This document shows, one piece after another, positions 5,217 through 33,372 of a stretch of DNA of 64,000 nucleotides. Positions within the stretch are counted from its first letter, which is position 1; each line of letters begins with the position of its first letter. The notes beneath the pieces are model-generated. The model did no database searches. It was not told the DNA's origin and was given only the letters and a program-made list of their open reading frames with translations. This stretch comes from a virus. Both the position numbers and the translations under genes were made by a program. The DNA is taken from UHGV virus genome UHGV-0038496, one strand, 5' to 3'.

Positions 5217-6021
5217 TTAAATCATCCTCTTATACATAGAGGGTGAAACAATCTTCGGAATAACACATGGCATCGCAACTTCCTCTTTTTCAAGGTAGTT
5301 GATTGCAGAAGCAATGGAGTCGGCCCAGTCATCTTTACGGCTAAAGGTTGACCGTTCGCCGTTGAATTTCTCCAGCTCTGTCAAAAATGCTTCCAGTGTA
5401 TCAGGGTCGAAACTTGACCTGACAAGCCGAACCATACCCTGTTGGGCAAGGTTGGCAAACGGTGAGAAACGGGTGAGTTTTGATTTGTTAGACGGCATTG
5501 GGTCTTCTTCCACCCTGAAACCTCCAGCAAGGAGTTTGCGGGATGAAGTAAGAAACTCACTCTTACCTGCCTGACCGGGGTCCACAGAGAAGACAATCAC
5601 ACAATCTTCACCATCAAACTCTGCCTGTTTCCTGATAATAACATCGCGTTCACCAGCTTTCTTGCAGAACTTACCGCTCAAGCCTGTGGAATACCTGCCA
5701 TCATCTACGTTTTCAGGACAATAGTCACCAGAGATGTAGTAGTAACCATCGCTATCCTTGCTGACTTTGATACTGGCTGTATAGTCGGGGAATTTGTTGC
5801 CAGAGGTACGTTCTGTACCAGCTTTATCCCACGCTCTTACAGAAACTGCTCCTAGGGGGACATGATCCGCATCTTTCAAGAATGTGCGACTGAAATAGTT
5901 TGCGCCTTCCGGTTTAGCGAACCAGTTACCATAGAGAAGTTGTGCTTTTTCCAGTTCTGGCAGACCTTCTAGGAATGCAAGATATTCTGGGTTATCACGC
6001 AAGCAGATAGGGTTATCGTGT
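5217..6021 (-). CDS. terL: terminase large subunit, exon 3 (C-terminal nuclease domain)
   Basis: Frame contains LLYGNWF-type terminase C-terminal motif; upstream boundary set where conserved intron 3' core ends (approximate). Confidence 0.55.
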
Positions 6022-7009
6022 CCTGGTGTTCAGGGCCGGACGCAACTCCGACCCCCGTTGGTTCCATCCACCGCATCCATGCTCGGCTGCATGTTACCAT
6101 GCAGAGCAGACTATATCACGATCCTGTTTCTCACAGGACCCTTCGCTTTTCGAGCACCATCAGCTTGTGCCCTACTCCCTTTCGGGATAGTCGTTGAACT
6201 ACAATTACCAATCATAATTGTTTGAAATGTAAGTATAAGTTTTCCTTTCCTTGATACTTTTCACTGTACGGTGAGAAACCCCCCACAATCTTGCCACCGC
6301 ACCAACGGATAAGCCTTTTTGTAAATCTTCGCAGATACCAATCACCTTGTGCTCACTTATTCTGTTAGCTGAAGGTATTTCCCTAAAGTGAAACTCCGCA
6401 GAGATATCTGGGTATACTGATCCATTCTTTATACCACTTACAAGGGTTTGATTGACACCGAACATCTGACAGATATCTTTTACCCTTGCACCTTGCTCTA
6501 ATAGCCTGCATATTTCAAGGGCAGTGGCATCATCCAAATACCTGTATTTATTTACATAATCTTTTTTAAGTCCAGTTTCATGGGCGTGGTGTGTGTTTTC
6601 CTCTGGGGTTGTCCACTCAAGGTTCCATGCGGCGTTATTCAACTTATTACCGTCCAAGTGATTTACTTGGGTTTTCACGCTAGGATTATCATTATCAACA
6701 AAAACCTCAGCAACAACTCTGTGAACAAGCACTTGGAACTTTTTGCCGTCCTCACACAGGGAAACCACAGCATAGCCTGTCTTTTTATGCGTAACAGGTT
6801 GAAGGAATTTATTAGAATACAAACTATAAATTCTGCCATCATATGTCACGCAATAGTGTGGGTAACCTAAAAATCCTAAATTCTTCATTTCAAACACTCC
6901 CTACTACAGTTTCGGAAGAATAATTATAGCTGCTGATTATCTGAAAGTCAATCAGATTTTCCAGCAATTAACGAAGTTATTCGACGTGCATTACTGCACG
7001 AAGCCACTA
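6022..7009 (-). mobile_element. group I intron A in terL (contains HNH homing endonuclease gene)
   Basis: Separates two in-frame terL fragments; RNA sense has AACGACUAUCCC and GAUAUAGUCUG (S-element-like) plus CUGCAUGG..ACAUGCAG hairpin; core near-identical to nrdD introns; 5' end approximate. Confidence 0.55.
6205..6897 (-). CDS. HNH homing endonuclease (intron-encoded)
   Basis: 230 aa; HRVVAEVFV...NHLDGNKLNN...NLEW HNH motif; lies inside terL intron A. Confidence 0.7.
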   Translation of the reverse strand: MFEMKNLGFLGYPHYCVTYDGRIYSLYSNKFLQPVTHKKTGYAVVSLCEDGKKFQVLVHRVVAEVFVDNDNPSVKTQVNHLDGNKLNNAAWNLEWTTPEENTHHAHETGLKKDYVNKYRYLDDATALEICRLLEQGARVKDICQMFGVNQTLVSGIKNGSVYPDISAEFHFREIPSANRISEHKVIGICEDLQKGLSVGAVARLWGVSHRTVKSIKERKTYTYISNNYDW

Positions 7010-7333
7010 CAGATTAATGGTTGCACCAATAAAGGCGATAGAGAGGGGTTTTGGAACTATCTCAACACCTTTACCGTTAACATACGTGTACTTCTCGATC
7101 AACTCTTCTGGCGTATCGCCGAAGATAAATTCCCCATCCCTACGGATGAAATAACGCTTAACGCCACACTTACTTTCATCGGGGTAGCCTTCGTCATCAA
7201 GCCACCAACGAACAAGTTTGGCTAAATAATGTTCAGAATCGGGGTTACAGCTGATCACCATTCGCGAAGAGTATTTTGATTTCGACCTCATACGGGAAAT
7301 CAGGTAGTCGATTTGCTCCCATTCGAACTGAGT
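7010..7333 (-). CDS. terL: terminase large subunit, exon 2 (boundaries approximate)
   Basis: Frame encodes ...MVISCNPDSEHY... terminase-like segment flanked by intron-like sequence on both sides; true splice donor probably within 7010-7080. Confidence 0.45.
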
Positions 7334-7966
7334 CGTTTGTGTTCAGGCAAGGTCGCTAATCTTGCCCCGCCACCATGTGGCAGCTGCATGTCTCCATGCA
7401 GACCAGACTATATCTTATAAGCGGTAACAACCGCCTATCCTCCCGTTTCGGCAGTCTTAAAAGACTGTGGGTTTCCCCAGCCGCTTGGCCCTAACGCCCG
7501 TAAGCGATAGTCGTTGAGCACACATCCTATCAGGATGCTTCGCTGCGGATTATCTAAATCAACACACTATTACCATACCTTCGGTCTTTCTCCAAAGCCA
7601 ATATTATGTTACCATAATAGATTGGTGGTGTCAATAGTAAAGATTTCCCCGCAATTAGGGAGGTTTTACGAGAGCTACCAACTAACCCTCGTCAAAGCAT
7701 ATTAAAGTATATTCCACTTTTGTCCCGCCGGATCGCTACTCCGACGCGGTGTGCTAAGACACCCGCCACATATTACCATGTGGAACAGACTATCTCTTCC
7801 ATCCTTGGCGTGCCGTTTGGATCACCAATCGCTTGTGATTCTACTCCCCTACACTCATCGGGGATAGTCGTTACACTCGGTTTCAATTAATCCTTTAACC
7901 GTAGCTCGGTATTGTCCTTTTGTCAAGGAGTTTCACCGAATTAGGCACGAAGGGCAGGTTTGTTTA
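7334..7966 (-). mobile_element. group I intron B in terL (ORF-less, duplicated core; possibly two tandem introns)
   Basis: Two copies of the AACGACUAUC(C/G)C ... (A/G)AUAUAGUCUG ... hairpin ... CCUGAACAC core in RNA sense; no credible ORF; boundaries by analogy with nrdD intron 2. Confidence 0.45.
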
Positions 7967-9079
7967 CCCTTGATGATTCAGCTTATCTTGGACGTATTCC
8001 ATGTGGCAGTACTTGATTACCGCACCATCCCTTTTCTTATTCCACTTACCTGTCTTTGCATCGTAATATGGAAAAGTAAACTTATGATCTTTCTCCCTAA
8101 ATTTTGGCCTCATATATTCAGGAAGATCCAGATACACACTTAGTGCTTTAGGCCACAGACCGCCTTCACCTTCCAGTTGTGGGGTTGTCCTACGGAACAT
8201 CACCACAGAGGTGTTTGGGTCATCTATCATCTTTAGTGGGAGAAGCTGCAAAAGAAAGGATTTACCACTGTTGCCTGTCACTGCAATGCAGTTTTCCAGT
8301 CTGGTGATAAAATAGCCTGTTGTGGTAGCAAAACAATATTTGTAACCATCTTCCGGCTCAAACTCTTCGAACGTTGCATCGTTATTAAGAGCAATCGTAC
8401 CTGCACGTTCGTTGGAGAACACAACTTTGTAACCCTTTTCGAAGAAGATCTGTGCATTGAATCCCAGAGATGATCCGAGGTATTGCAAGAAATCAGCCTG
8501 TTCTTTCGTTGGAACAACGTAGACATGCGAGTCATTACCGTTCAGGTAAATCTCATACCAGATCTGCAACAACTGGCGACGATCACAGTTATACCATTCA
8601 TCTGTGAATTTGTAATATCTTGCCTTTTCTTTCAGCTCTTCGTCAGAAATATCAAGGCCAGTACCACCCATGTTCACAAACGTGGTTTGCATACGCATTG
8701 CCAACTCATCGTTAGCATGTTGTTCGGCCACTTCACTGAAACAAAGTGTACCGTAATCTGTTCCGTCTTCTGGTACATACAGGACTGTGTGCTCGTCAGA
8801 CAATTCCTGACAAATACCATCCTGCACAACCCTGGTCAATTTATCGCATTCCAGCTTAACAAACTCTTCAGGCTGGATAAACATAGCCTTACCAGTTTCT
8901 TTATCAAACTGGAGGATATCTTGACCATCCCAGTCTGAGATTCTGATCCAACCGTTAGGTGTCATCACCTCATGTCGCATTGACAAACAACCCGCTGCCC
9001 CACCAATGATCAGGAAGTCGGCATCATTTTCCAGAATCATTTGTTGTTTACGGGAGCATGGGCCATACATTTTAGCCAT
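7967..9079 (-). CDS. terL: terminase large subunit, exon 1 (ATPase N-terminus, contains intein)
   Basis: N-terminus ...FLIIGGAAG then, after 240 aa insert, SGKSFLLQ: restored Walker A GGAAGSGKS; ATG at 9079 overlaps o-spanin stop. Confidence 0.6.
8270..8989 (-). mobile_element. intein inserted in terL Walker A (P-loop)
   Basis: 240 aa in-frame insert starting with Cys (CLSMRHEVMTPNGWIRISD, intein block-A-like) and ending ...IAVTGN before Ser+1; removal restores Walker A. Confidence 0.6.
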
Positions 9080-10206: not shown

Positions 10207-10282
10207 TGGCACCCCGTACAGGACTCGAACCTGTAACCTATGGCTTAGAAGGCCACTGTTCTTCCATTTGAACTAACGGGGC
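10207..10282 (-). tRNA. tRNA-Arg (anticodon TCT)
   Basis: 76 nt cloverleaf on minus strand: acceptor GCCCCGT/ACGGGGT (G1-U72), D stem GTTC/GAAC, anticodon stem GTGGC/GCCAT with loop CTTCTAA, T arm ACAGG-TTCGAGT-CCTGT, encoded CCA. Confidence 0.8.
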
Positions 10283-29439: not shown

Positions 29440-30452
29440 CGTGGCCTTACTGAGTGATCAGTATTGAATAACTCTGTTAACGCTAATTGCAAAGCGGTGT
29501 GCAGCGAAAAGCTGTGCTAACGGTTCAGAGGCAGGTGACTGCATTATGAGTAAGGGAGCCTAAACCCTTTGGACTAGGGGCAAGGTAATACCGTGCTAAG
29601 AATAGTGGCATCCTCTTAACTAGGAGGATGGTATGAATTTAGAATATGTTGATTGTGGGGATTACACAATCTATGAAGACGGTTATGTGGTTGACCATAT
29701 AGATGGCTATTGTGGTTGGGGGTACAGAAACGGTGGATACAGAGAAGCCTATGTTTACATAGGTGGAGAAAAGAGAAGAATGAAAGTTCACAGGTTAGTA
29801 GCTATGGCTTTTATTCCAAACCCTCTGAATTTGCCAGTTGTTAATCATCTGGATGGGAATAAGATGAACAACCACAGAGACAATCTTGAGTGGTGCACAC
29901 AAGGTCGTAACAATATACATGCAATTGAGACAGGATTAAGAAACGTCGCTGAATCGAACAGTAAGAGGTGGGATGACTCTGCATTCAGAGAAAGAACGGC
30001 TTCCAGAATAAGTGCGACACAAAAAGAACGCGGGACAACCGCTGGTAGGAATAATCCTCGTTTCAAGTATGAGATTGTTAAAGACGGAGATGTGTACACG
30101 GCTCCAGAGTTCTTCAATAAATTCAAAGATGTTTATGGTTTAAAACATTTGGAAAATCTGATAGGTAATTGTTGTGCATACCTCAAGCACAACTTGAAAA
30201 GAAAATTCTGGCTTAAAGTTGGAGCAGAGCCACGCTACGCCAAGAAAGAGTAAAACCTTCGGATGCCACTATTTATGTGTATCGACTATCCCGTAAGGGA
30301 GTAGGTGGGAGATGCTCCCCATCCAAAAGCAGAGGATCTCTAACTAGAGATCGTGATATAGTCATTGCCTACAGAAATGTAGGAGAATCAAGGATTTAGA
30401 TTACATAATTAGTCCATTAACGAACTGTTGTCTTGTAAATTATCCAGACATG
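29440..30452 (+). mobile_element. group I intron 1 in nrdD (HNH endonuclease-containing)
   Basis: Interrupts nrdD frame; contains ATCGACTATCCCGTAAGGGAGTAGG and GATATAGTC elements shared with terL introns; 3' end ...CAGACATG fits phase of exon 2. Confidence 0.5.
29633..30253 (+). CDS. HNH homing endonuclease (intron-encoded)
   Basis: HRLVAMAFIPNP...NHLDGNKMNN...NLEW; AGGAGG RBS. Confidence 0.65.
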   Translation: MNLEYVDCGDYTIYEDGYVVDHIDGYCGWGYRNGGYREAYVYIGGEKRRMKVHRLVAMAFIPNPLNLPVVNHLDGNKMNNHRDNLEWCTQGRNNIHAIETGLRNVAESNSKRWDDSAFRERTASRISATQKERGTTAGRNNPRFKYEIVKDGDVYTAPEFFNKFKDVYGLKHLENLIGNCCAYLKHNLKRKFWLKVGAEPRYAKKE

Positions 30453-31055
30453 CTGGAGCATGGATTTACAATAGGTAACGCAACCATAGGAACACCAAAT
30501 TCTATTAATGTAGCTGCAACAGTTCTTTCACAAATTTCAGCTGCTGTTTCTGGTGGGCAGTATGGTGGGCAGACGTACAGTCACATAGACCGCTACCTTG
30601 TCCCCTATGTAGAAAAAACACATAATAAAAACTTATCTTTCTGTAAAAAACACGGTTTGCCGGAAAGCGTTGCTGATGAAATGACAGAGAAAGATGTATA
30701 TGATAGTATGCAATGTTTTCTCTATCAAATCAACACCTTAACCAGCACCAACGGGCAAACTCCGTTTTTGACTATCAGTTTAGGTCTTGATACTTCTAAA
30801 TTTGGGAGGATGATCACTAAAAACTATCTTATGGTTCATAAAGGTGGCATTGGTGAAGACCATATAACCCCAGTATTCCCTAAAGTCTTGTTCTTCCTTG
30901 AAGAAGGGGTGAACATGAACCCAGGTGACCCAAATTACGATTTGAAACGCCTGGCTTTGGAATGCTCAGCAGAGCGAATTTACCCAGACTTCGTTTCTGT
31001 GCCTTTGAACAGAAAAGTGACAGGATCTACTGCTGGCGATGTTACAAGCATGGGT
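30453..31055 (+). CDS. nrdD: anaerobic ribonucleoside-triphosphate reductase, exon 2
   Basis: Frame continues reductase body; ends with U before splice donor. Confidence 0.55.
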
Positions 31056-31833
31056 AAACTACTATTGCTCATGTAAAACCTATCTAAACGGGGGAACTCT
31101 CTACGGAGAAAATCCCGTGCTAAACGTAACAGAACTCCCGGAGAAAAGGAGTCCTGAAATGAGAAAACAAATTCGTGATTTTGAAGGGTATGAAATTGAC
31201 GAGATGGGAAATGTTTATTGCACCCGCTACGAAAAGGAAAGAATCATCCATCCGTGGGAAGAAATAAACACAGGCTACCTTCTTGTCAGGATACGCAAGA
31301 ACAAGAAAACTGTTTGCCTGAGGGTTCACAGACTTGTTGCTGAAGCGTTTTTACCGAATCCAGACAATTTGCCCTATGTTAAGCATAAGGGTGACAACAA
31401 GAAAGATAACAGCGTATACAATCTTGAGTGGGGTGCTTGCCCAGATAATACCCAGGAAGGTTACGACAACAACTGTTATACTTTTTACACAAGGTGTCAC
31501 GGTGTGAAAGCTACCAACAAACTGACTGGTGAAGTTTTCCACTTTAAGAGTCTGAGATGCTGTGCTGATACTTTAGGGGTGGATAGAAAAAGAATATCTG
31601 CTATCCTGAAGCGTGGAGCACCTAATAACTATGATTACGAGTTCTGTTACGAAATGCCGAACGACTAACCGTGATGAATGTAGCGGTGTAGGGTGCAAGC
31701 CTATGGCACTCCAAAAGATAGGCACACGAAAGTGTGAAGATATAGTCTGATCTGCATGGTGACATGCAGCCGAGCATGGATGCGGTGGATGGAACCAACG
31801 GGGGTAGTGTTGCGAGCTACTCTGAACACAATG
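31056..31833 (+). mobile_element. group I intron 2 in nrdD (HNH endonuclease-containing)
   Basis: Exon 2 ends ...ATGGGT, intron ends ...CACAATG (omega-G), exon 3 begins TGT giving continuous ...SMG/CRSF...; AAGATATAGTCTG and CTGCATGG..ACATGCAG hairpin near 3' end. Confidence 0.6.
31159..31668 (+). CDS. HNH homing endonuclease (intron-encoded)
   Basis: Start at MRKQIRDFEGYEIDEMGNVY after AAAGGAG; VHRLVAEAFLPNP...NLEWG. Confidence 0.65.
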   Translation: MRKQIRDFEGYEIDEMGNVYCTRYEKERIIHPWEEINTGYLLVRIRKNKKTVCLRVHRLVAEAFLPNPDNLPYVKHKGDNKKDNSVYNLEWGACPDNTQEGYDNNCYTFYTRCHGVKATNKLTGEVFHFKSLRCCADTLGVDRKRISAILKRGAPNNYDYEFCYEMPND

Positions 31834-32808
31834 TGTAGAAGTTTCTTGAGTAAATACAACGATCCTGTAACAGGTGAAGAGAAATATCTCGGTCGTTTCA
31901 ACTTAGGTGTGGTAAGCCTGAACCTACCTATGATTGCAGCTCGTTCCAAAGCTGAACAGGTAGATTTCTTCAAACTGCTTGACGAGTATCTTGAACTGGC
32001 GTATGATGCTCATATGGTACGTGTGAACCGTTTGAAAGGCACAAAAGCTGGACAGAACCCGATCATGTGGTGTGAAGGTGTTCTGGCTCGTCTTGATCCT
32101 AATGAGGAGATTGACAAACTGTTCTACGATGGCTATGCTTCTATAAGCATCGGCTATATTGGTGTTTATGAAACATGCCAGATCCTTGGCAGAGAAGGCG
32201 ACAAAAACCTTGCTCTGGGTATCCTCCAGCACATGAAGGATAAATGTGTTGAGTTCAAAGAACGCAGCAGATTAGGTTTTAGCCTGTACGGCACACCAAG
32301 TGAAAATCTCTGCTATAAAGCGGCTACTTGCTTAGACAGGGCGTATCCTGGAGTTCTGGAGCACGAAAGGGAATATCTGACTAATTCGTTTCATCAGCCA
32401 GTCTGGATCAAGAGCAGTCCTTTCGACAAGTGGGACTATGAAACCGGATTCGCAGCGATCTCCAACGGAGGGTTCATAGGTTACGTTGAACTACCTAATT
32501 TACGTAACAATCTCGATGCTTTGGAAAAAATTGTTGATTACGGGTACACCCATTTGCCATATTTCGGCATCAACATGCCTGTTGACCAATGCTTCAAATG
32601 TGGCTTCCGTGGGGAATTTTCTGCCACTGCAAAAGGGTTCTGCTGCCCTGAGTGTGGTAACCATGACGAAAGTAGCATCAGTGTGATCCGAAGAGTATCA
32701 GGCTATCTGTCTGCACCTAATGCTCGCCCATTCAATCGAGGGAAACAATCGGAGGTGTTAGAAAGGGTTAAACATGTCGGCAACGTAGATTGTTGTAGTA
32801 TCTGTTAA
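31834..32808 (+). CDS. nrdD: anaerobic ribonucleoside-triphosphate reductase, exon 3 (C-terminal zinc ribbon)
   Basis: C-terminal CFKCG...CCPECG zinc ribbon as in class III reductases. Confidence 0.6.
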   Translation, partial: CRSFLSKYNDPVTGEEKYLGRFNLGVVSLNLPMIAARSKAEQVDFFKLLDEYLELAYDAHMVRVNRLKGTKAGQNPIMWCEGVLARLDPNEEIDKLFYDGYASISIGYIGVYETCQILGREGDKNLALGILQHMKDKCVEFKERSRLGFSLYGTPSENLCYKAATCLDRAYPGVLEHEREYLTNSFHQPVWIKSSPFDKWDYETGFAAISNGGFIGYVELPNLRNNLDALEKIVDYGYTHLPYFGINMPVDQCFKCGFRGEFSATAKGFCCPECGNHDESSISVIRRVSGYLSAPNARPFNRGKQSEVLERVKHVGNVDCCSIC

Positions 32809-32862: not shown

Positions 32863-33372
32863 ATGAATGGAAGATGTTCTATACCTGTTCCTAAAGGTAG
32901 TAACGGAGAAATCTTATGGGATGAAATTTTCATAGCCAAAGATAAAGGTTTAGTGTGGAAATACGACAGAAGGATGGTTAAAGCTGGCGAGAAGGCAGGT
33001 ACAAAACAGAAAAATGGCTACTTTGCTGTCTATGTTTGTGGGAAACAGTATTATGTTCACCGAATAGTTTGGGAAATGCATAATGGTCCTATACCGAAAG
33101 GTAAAATGATTGACCATGTGGATCACGACAGAGAAAACAATGATATAAGCAATCTTAGGCTTGTTGATGATAAAGGCAATACGAGAAATGTATCCTTGAG
33201 AGCAGACAACAAGTGTGGTTGCCCTGGTGTGTGCTTCGACAACACAAGGCAGAAATGGCTTGTCACTATTTGCGGGAAATACATAGGTAGGTTTGATACC
33301 TTGTTTGAAGCAATTTGCGCCAGAAAATCTAGAAACGCAGAGCACGGCTTCCACAAGAACCACGGGAGGTGA
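32863..33372 (+). CDS. HNH-AP2 homing endonuclease (free-standing between nrdD and nrdG)
   Basis: VHRIVWEMHNGPIP...IDHVDHDRENNDISNL HNH motif; AP2-like C-terminus. Confidence 0.6.
   Translation: MNGRCSIPVPKGSNGEILWDEIFIAKDKGLVWKYDRRMVKAGEKAGTKQKNGYFAVYVCGKQYYVHRIVWEMHNGPIPKGKMIDHVDHDRENNDISNLRLVDDKGNTRNVSLRADNKCGCPGVCFDNTRQKWLVTICGKYIGRFDTLFEAICARKSRNAEHGFHKNHGR

Follow-up and report, generated by a model that had tools for sequence, protein, structure and literature searches.

The window analysed in this study is the whole 64,000-nucleotide (nt) stretch of UHGV virus genome UHGV-0038496 (one strand, 5' to 3'). It belongs to an uncultivated Vequintavirinae-like (rV5-like) phage, and the gene described here is the single gene of that phage for the large terminase subunit (TerL), the DNA-packaging ATPase/nuclease. 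The TerL region was about 79% identical at the nucleotide level to Escherichia phage rV5 and other Vequintavirinae, and no phage closer than the rV5-like set was found in INPHARED. The gene was resolved into four exons, three group I introns and one intein, and has very probably been colonised by four self-splicing mobile elements; the three or four selfish elements of the original prediction, which was made from the sequence alone, were thus counted as four. The parts of the locus are listed below, with the evidence used to place them in brackets (ORF, open reading frame; P1 and P6, paired regions of the intron fold).

5217..9079, minus strand: whole interrupted TerL gene, with four exons, three group I introns and one intein
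7966..9079, minus strand: exon 1, 1114 nt (tblastn with the TerL of phage HMD-6, U·G pair in P1, junction alignment)
8270..8989, minus strand: intein, 240 amino acids (aa), precursor residues 31-270 (absence from homologues, family alignment, AlphaFold model, Foldseek)
7717..7965, minus strand: group I intron A, 249 nt, no ORF (Rfam, presence or absence in relatives, covariation, U·G pair in P1, terminal G)
7685..7716, minus strand: exon 2, a 32-nt mini-exon (tblastn match, contiguity in the TerL proteins P0008 and P0001, junction alignments)
7334..7684, minus strand: group I intron B, 351 nt, no ORF, td-like (Rfam, occupancy in relatives, similarity to td)
7017..7333, minus strand: exon 3, 317 nt, encoding TQFEWEQIDYL...FIGATI
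6022..7016, minus strand: group I intron C, 995 nt, with an ORF in the P6 loop (both halves in Rfam, fold, presence or absence in relatives)
6205..6888, minus strand: HNH homing-endonuclease ORF, 227 aa from the ATG at 6888 (Pfam, rV5 homologue, position in the fold)
5217..6021, minus strand: exon 4, 805 nt including the stop codon, encoding the nuclease domain (HDNPICLRDNPEY...KRMI, stop)

Three ORF fragments homologous to TerL were present on the minus strand (7964-9079, 7007-7291 and 5217-6002), as had been predicted, and the protein obtained by joining the exons was matched by the Pfam families Terminase_6N (77.6 bits, cut-off 22) and Terminase_6C (32 bits, cut-off 22.6). For the gene model, the TerL of HMD-6, which has one intron only, was used as a tblastn query, and splice sites were placed on the requirement that a U, paired with a G of P1, be the last base of the upstream exon and that G be the last base of the intron. 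Between two ribozyme cores in the 632-nt gap after the first ORF, the query found an 11-residue match (VEYTLICFDEG; LEYTMVCFDEG in HMD-6), and the presence of two cores in this gap indicates two introns around a 32-nt exon, not one intron. The count of at least three exons given in the original prediction was therefore literally true, the actual number being four; likewise, the 0.6-kb non-coding stretch between its first two fragments is of group I origin as proposed, but it holds two introns (249 and 351 nt) with a mini-exon between them. Exon 1 ends in ...CAAGGGU, in codon phase 1, and the UAA that closes its ORF straddles the splice site (GGG U^AA, where ^ marks the site). Exon 2 reads UG GAA UAU ACU UUA AUA UGC UUU GAC GAG GGU; it completes the codon of Leu132 and encodes residues 133-142 (EYTLICFDEG), within which lies the Walker B motif.

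Joined at the predicted junctions (CAAGGGU^UGGAAU for exons 1 and 2, GAGGGU^ACUCAG for exons 2 and 3, and AACCAU^ACACGA for exons 3 and 4), the coding sequence is 2268 nt long and in frame. It specifies a 755-aa precursor, or 515 aa once the 240-aa insertion is subtracted. The uninterrupted database TerL P0008 has the same length as this predicted mature product and is colinear with it without gaps. It reads continuously over the three junctions (...KLNHQGLEYTMVCFDEGTQFEWEQIDYL... and ...FIGATIFDNPVCLRDNPEY...), the bridging segments being ...NHQGLEYTMVCFDEGTQFEWEQ... and ...GATIFDNPV..., and in both P0008 and P0001 the exon 2 stretch is contiguous with its neighbours. When 90-nt windows of the spliced coding sequence were centred on each junction, all three were aligned without gaps to intron-less alleles of relatives; at junction C the identity to the relative L008, whose empty-site allele reads GGTGCAACAATACACGATAACCC, was 94%. 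The alignment to an uninterrupted terminase and the scan with the Rfam group I model (below) were both checks named in the original prediction. At site B the exon ends in GGT in all seven alleles that bear intron B and in GGA, GGC or GGG in all six intron-less alleles; GGT supplies the U needed by intron B and so supports its 5' splice site. All exon frames are intact and are 93-100% conserved with relatives. In each of the three introns an in-frame stop lies at the 5' splice site or no more than three codons past it, so that unspliced RNA would yield truncated protein only. Placement of the 3' splice sites at the shared CCUG^AACAC was rejected, since it leaves an in-frame TAA in HMD-6 and extra residues in the product; the accepted sites lie 9-10 nt downstream (...AAACG^, ...CCAGG^) and fit the intron-less alleles exactly.

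Intron B was matched by the Rfam group I intron model (RF00028, gathering score 50 bits) with 80.3 bits at 7384-7720 on the minus strand, above the gathering score. The match to intron A was 44.7 bits at 7766-8028 on the minus strand, with E values of 2.7e-9 in the local scan and 3.8e-8 window-wide. The group I hallmarks quoted in the original prediction were all found: AACGACTATC at 7872, 7515 and 6195; GATATAGTCTG at 7414 and 6117, with the variant GAGATAGTCTG at 7796; and the hairpin CTGCATGG..ACATGCAG at 7401-7384 and 6104-6087. Core segments and the 3' tail are common to introns A, B and C, all three end in G, and each has a P1 with a U·G pair at the splice site: AAGGGU/GCCCUU in intron A (in minimum-free-energy and alignment folds), ACGAGGGU/GCUCUCGU in intron B and CCAU^UA/UAGUGG in intron C. 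For intron B the U·G helix ACGAGGGU/GCUCUCGU was adopted, and the P1 assigned by Rfam, which starts at 7720 within exon 2, was rejected. When intron A was compared with the copy in phage TH18 (81% identical), 10 of the 74 predicted pairs were changed on both sides and still paired, in a comparison of three sequences only. At its 3' end, over 80 nt (P7'-P9-P9.x), intron B shares 82% identity with the T4 td intron. Intron C, once its ORF region is taken out, folds into P1, P2, P3, P4, P5 and P6 and the 3' hairpins, through P9, and P6 (CUAUAAUUA/UAAUUGUAG) closes around the ORF.

The ORF of intron C starts at the ATG at 6888, with a Shine-Dalgarno sequence (GGGAG) 8 nt upstream, and the 3' strand of P6 contains its stop codon. 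As predicted for one of the stretches between the terminase fragments, it encodes an HNH homing endonuclease: HNH_3 (27.9 bits, cut-off 24.8) and HTH_23 (33.6 bits, cut-off 24.6) were both detected above the Pfam cut-offs in the open frame at 6205-6897, and the protein is 84% identical to the annotated HNH homing endonuclease of rV5 (ORF65). Judged by this apparently intact HNH/HTH endonuclease, intron C is probably actively mobile. A role of the ORF as packaging cofactor (Kala et al., cited in PMC7344957) was rejected, because its presence tracks the intron among close relatives and because it carries HTH modules like those of I-HmuI.

The intein that had been proposed in exon 1 was identified as a 240-aa block (CLSMRH...AVTGN) inserted in the Walker A motif with G30 and S31 as its immediate neighbours (GGAAG^SGKS). 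Homologues read GGAAGSGKS, and the block is absent from the TerL of HMD-6, rV5, L009 and P0008. Relatives of the block were detected by tblastn in the TerL of Av-05 and of TH18-like phages, and also in RtcB and primase/helicase genes of unrelated phages; such a spread across unrelated host genes is typical of inteins and supports the identification. In an alignment of 11 family members (158-329 aa), C1, S64 and H67 (block B, S64-D-E-H67), C219 (block F), T238-G239-N240 and Ser+1 are invariant. The AlphaFold (AF2) model has a mean predicted local distance difference test (pLDDT) value of 92.4, a predicted TM-score (pTM) of 0.88 and a HINT fold. When it was searched against the Protein Data Bank (PDB) with Foldseek, all 14 matches with E values of 0.001 or lower were inteins, and the weaker matches were other HINT-fold domains; the leading matches were the AceL NrdHF intein (6zgq, 1e-7), VMA inteins, PI-PfuI and PI-SceI, with 7qst, 1dq3 and 1zd7 also among them. 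Of the features of a class 1 intein, the N-terminal Cys, the block B (T/S)xxH and a C-terminal Asn followed by Ser+1 are present. Class 3 inteins are defined by WCT, that is Trp at B:12, Cys at F:4 and Thr at G:5, and by the lack of an N-terminal nucleophile (PMC7891396, PMC5050341). Two of these residues, Cys219 (KYCF, at F:4 by our own block assignment) and Thr238 (G:5), occur in the window intein and do not vary in the family; assignment to class 3 was not adopted, since B:12 is Val69 and Cys1 is invariant, so that two of the four features are found. The intein also lacks the approximately 90 residues that hold the LAGLIDADG-type motifs (LRLQVAVMADG, WDGS) in its 323-329-aa relatives, and its homing endonuclease is, by this deletion, probably dead.

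Occupancy of the TerL gene was mapped by placing the mature protein onto the loci of relatives. Five insertion sites were recognised, for the intein (aa 30/31) and for introns A (131/132), B (142/143), C (248/249) and D (479/480), and are filled as follows.

L009: no elements
L008: intein
L011: intein and B
L007: intein, B and D
L010: intein and D
L015: intein, A and C
HMD-6: B
rV5: B and C
L014: C
TH18: intein, A and C
Window: intein, A, B and C

Site B, for instance, is occupied in rV5, HMD-6, L007 and L011 and empty in L008, L010 and L015. The group I intron at site D (6300-6582 in L010 and 5195-5477 in L007; 70-72 bits) lies in the nuclease domain, after residue 479, and this site is empty in the window. 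Introns A and B occur together in no INPHARED record, and scans of IMG/VR and the metagenomes of the Joint Genome Institute (JGI), made with a pattern validated on the window, returned no match to the tandem of intron A, 32 nt and intron B, which was found only in the contigs of the phage itself. The relatives form a natural series, in which at least five sites are filled in varied combinations among phages that are 85-96% identical. This series is suited to the study of how homing elements build up in a single essential gene, how introns without an ORF are maintained and how flanking exons are co-converted, an example of the last being the GGT wobble base, found without exception in alleles with intron B.

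Three further observations concern the introns at sites A and B. The intron A site is offset by 1 nt between the window (7966/7716, GGG T^TG) and L003 (TH18; about 4017/4257, GGT^TTG), and in both a GGGU, the pairing partner of the guide GCCCUU, precedes the intron. In an unrelated phage, Escherichia phage vB-EcoP-XT18 (OR757434, 76909-77637), a DNA primase/helicase gene contains a relative of intron A (76% identity over 59% of its length) together with an HNH ORF. Intron B has a long form of about 885 nt in some rV5-like phages (L012/L013, 1638-2523; GenBank KP869102 and related records), with recombination endonuclease VII as the annotated product of its ORF; the window has the ORF-less form, of 351 nt.

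On this basis, expression of TerL would proceed in two stages. At the RNA level, each of the three related, td-like group I introns would excise, its P1 being formed with the last exon base, U, paired to a G of the guide sequence, and exon 1, the 32-nt exon 2, exon 3 and exon 4 would be joined. At the protein level, the 755-aa precursor would lose the 240-aa intein (Cys1...Asn240/Ser+1), by which the Walker A motif GAAGSGKS would be rebuilt in a 515-aa enzyme. Functional TerL would then require three RNA splicing events and one protein splicing event. Presumably all four reactions do occur and are needed for packaging, in line with the dependence of virion production on both kinds of splicing that had been predicted. 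Introns A and B and the intein probably persist through their splicing competence and through co-conversion or recombination during co-infection.

The 5' splice sites of introns A and B both end in RAGGGU. The guide of intron A was calculated to pair about equally with the end of exon 2 (-10.7 kcal/mol) and with its own exon (-9.4 kcal/mol), whereas the guide of intron B strongly prefers its own exon (-11.5 kcal/mol) to exon 1 (-4.1 kcal/mol). From these modelled energies, some mis-pairing in the tandem is possible; exon skipping by pairing of the intron B guide with exon 1 was considered and looks disfavoured, given the weakness of that pairing. Skipping of exon 2 is predicted to cause a frameshift and a stop after residue 400.

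Several points weigh against a TerL gene interrupted by four self-splicing elements. Intron A falls below the RF00028 gathering score (44.7 against 50 bits). Intron C was matched by the same model as two weak halves (28.6 bits at 6087-6395 and 21.9 bits at 6666-7026), its core being split by the ORF; its P1 is short (6 bp), and the P10 pairings are weak in all three introns. The intein sequence gave no match in Pfam, NCBIfam or the PDB (phmmer), even at E values up to 1-10; the family is too divergent for curated profiles, and the identification accordingly rests on the tblastn relatives, the family alignment, the AF2 model and the Foldseek matches. The usual penultimate His is also absent, block G:6 being occupied by Gly239, which is invariant in the family. 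This His is common in inteins and poorly conserved in those of phages (PMC5050341), so that its absence does not exclude membership. The sequence is a metagenome assembly from a source population that is polymorphic at exactly the element sites, and a chimeric path is conceivable, though two assemblies agree. Finally, that RNA and protein are spliced in this phage is something that we infer.

Three rival explanations were considered. Alleles of co-occurring strains may have been combined in assembly, in which case no single phage would carry all four elements, and introns A and B might never occur together. Close relatives from one IMG/VR sample set (3300045988) do differ at exactly the element sites, and the tandem was recovered from neither IMG/VR nor the JGI metagenomes. 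The contig of a second assembly (Logan ERR7738938) ends inside intron B, at window position 7493, a break typical of a branching assembly graph. Up to that end, though, the Logan contig agrees with the first assembly, a 140.7-kb metagenome contig that contains the exact sequence (European Nucleotide Archive (ENA) ERZ27287477, k141_617802), with no mismatches over intron A, exon 2 and 192 nt at the start of intron B. The exact exon 1 ORF, ending at the intron A splice site, is found in four contigs, and the distance from intron A to the start of intron B is 32 nt, well inside a single k-mer (141) or read. A chimera is therefore judged very unlikely.

Alternatively, the gene may be decaying, with at least one element no longer able to splice and TerL a pseudogene in a defective phage. 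Candidates for such an element are the intein, in which Gly replaces the penultimate His and the endonuclease is deleted, and the low-scoring intron A. This is regarded as highly unlikely: TGN^S is invariant in all 11 members of the intein family and so is a family trait, phage inteins are often without the penultimate His (PMC5050341), the helices of intron A have been kept through compensatory changes, the exon frames are intact at the conservation given above, and the intein-bearing exon 1 falls in a 90%-identity cluster of 432 sequences. The gene may also be split without splicing, its fragments being translated separately and assembled into an active terminase, after the model of the Aeh1 NrdA split by mobE. 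Endonuclease insertions that split phage genes without splicing do exist (discussed in PMC7344957), and gene callers report the TerL fragments as separate ORFs. A 32-nt exon carrying Walker B, however, cannot be a separate gene; exons 3 and 4 start mid-motif, without a start codon or ribosome-binding site of their own at the homology boundary; and the intervening sequences hold complete group I cores whose exact removal restores colinearity with uninterrupted TerL. Separate translation of the fragments is thus extremely unlikely, and removal of three group I introns and an intein is the explanation preferred here.

A more far-reaching combination of claims was also considered and is thought improbable as a whole: that this is the most densely parasitised phage packaging gene so far, with three ribozymes and an intein, and that it combines a forced coordination of introns A and B with an intein that could splice by a hybrid or class 3-like route. 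Under this proposal the 32-nt Walker B exon would force coordinated splicing of A and B, and packaging could be gated, in a manner sensitive to GTP or to folding, by how much mRNA is correctly spliced relative to skipped or mis-spliced forms. The intein would represent an undescribed family (invariant Cys1 with Cys at F:4 and Thr at G:5, no penultimate His), and such a family could use that route.

With respect to gene context, TerL is flanked by spanin-like genes on one side and by a portal gene on the other, as in rV5 and HMD-6. A tRNA gene (10210-10282, minus strand, 68.3 bits) lies upstream of the lysis/terminase block, as it does in rV5-like genomes. Elsewhere in the window, an nrdD-like (anaerobic ribonucleotide reductase) gene at 30450-32808 on the plus strand is apparently interrupted by a fourth group I intron, with an HNH ORF at 31039-31668 and a 3' half that matches RF00028 at 31663-31769 (34 bits). 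The P9 and 3' tail of this intron are nearly identical to the tail of TerL intron C, and the spurious ORFs at 5969-6100 (minus strand) and 31756 (plus strand) both start with MVTCSRAWMRWMEPTGV. Two HNH-like ORFs flank the nrdD region (29633-30253 and 32863-33372, both on the plus strand) and look like free-standing homing endonucleases. In a megablast of 20000-44000, the best match was 95-99% identical in 223 phage records, while the whole-genome identity to any phage is only about 77%. These matches suggest short, recently exchanged mobile segments, probably introns or genes for homing endonucleases that T4-like and other phages also carry.

Interrupted terminase genes of this kind have precedents. 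The rV5 (V5) TerL (ORF64ABC, DQ832317) was published in 2013 as a three-segment, intron-containing gene with an HNH endonuclease (Kropinski et al., PMC3606486) and is a three-piece join in GenBank; in this respect, the novelty attached to the locus in the original prediction was overstated. The rV5 gene is 79-89% identical in aa sequence per exon (about 79% in nt) and has introns at sites B and C, with the HNH homing endonuclease in intron C. It differs in lacking the intein and intron A, and hence has three exons and no mini-exon. The TerL of vB_EcoM_TH18, 18-1-2, 19-1-2 and 24-2-1 (ON075799 and others) shares the intein at the P-loop site, intron A (81% nt identity) and the HNH-bearing intron C. 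It lacks intron B, so that exons 2 and 3 are fused, and its intein is full-length (329 aa, with LAGLIDADG motifs) and 38.5% identical to that of the window. In the TH18 record the elements are unannotated, and the pieces appear as separate 'terminase large subunit' coding sequences.

The td intron of T4 belongs to subgroup IA2 and carries the ORF of I-TevI in its P6 loop. The endonuclease ORF of intron C occupies the same position; the host gene differs, and the window encodes an HNH enzyme and td a GIY-YIG enzyme. In Bastillevirinae, two or three group I introns per TerL gene have been described, with exon skipping in the TerL of SIOphi, and a small exon between two introns is known from another gene, that for the ribonucleotide reductase large subunit (rNDPL) of phiNIT1 (PMC11878797, Nucleic Acids Res 2025). 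These are phages of Gram-positive hosts with an unrelated TerL lineage in which no TerL intein has been reported, and in the window the loss of exon 2 by skipping would cause a frameshift.

Among the inteins of mycobacteriophages, those in the P-loop are the most frequent (Kelley et al. 2016, PMC5050341). The mycobacteriophage TerL inteins likewise lie within the Walker A P-loop of terminase and have the penultimate His replaced, Gly occurring at this position in phage inteins, but they are inserted at GK^T, whereas the site in the window is between x3 and x4 of GxxxxGKS. The best structural match, the AceL NrdHF intein (6zgq, PMC7891396), is likewise without the penultimate His, and its F:4 and G:5 positions are Cys and Thr. 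The family in the window differs from typical class 3 inteins in keeping an invariant Cys1. In the related phage CB7, splicing of the TerL HNH intron was shown by reverse transcription PCR, and NrdA and NrdB carry an intron and an intein each (PMC7344957).

The general picture is thus unchanged, intron- and intein-interrupted terminases being established. For annotation, gene callers break this TerL into three unrelated ORFs and overlook the 32-nt exon with the Walker B catalytic residues, and the exact junctions given here permit the correct join. The tandem introns with their tiny exon offer a test case for exon skipping in phage group I introns. Each component, and the idea of stacking, was already known, and the locus is an extreme member of its kind; what is new is the stacking of four elements in one gene and the tandem arrangement of intron A, 32 nt and intron B, the latter found only in this phage.

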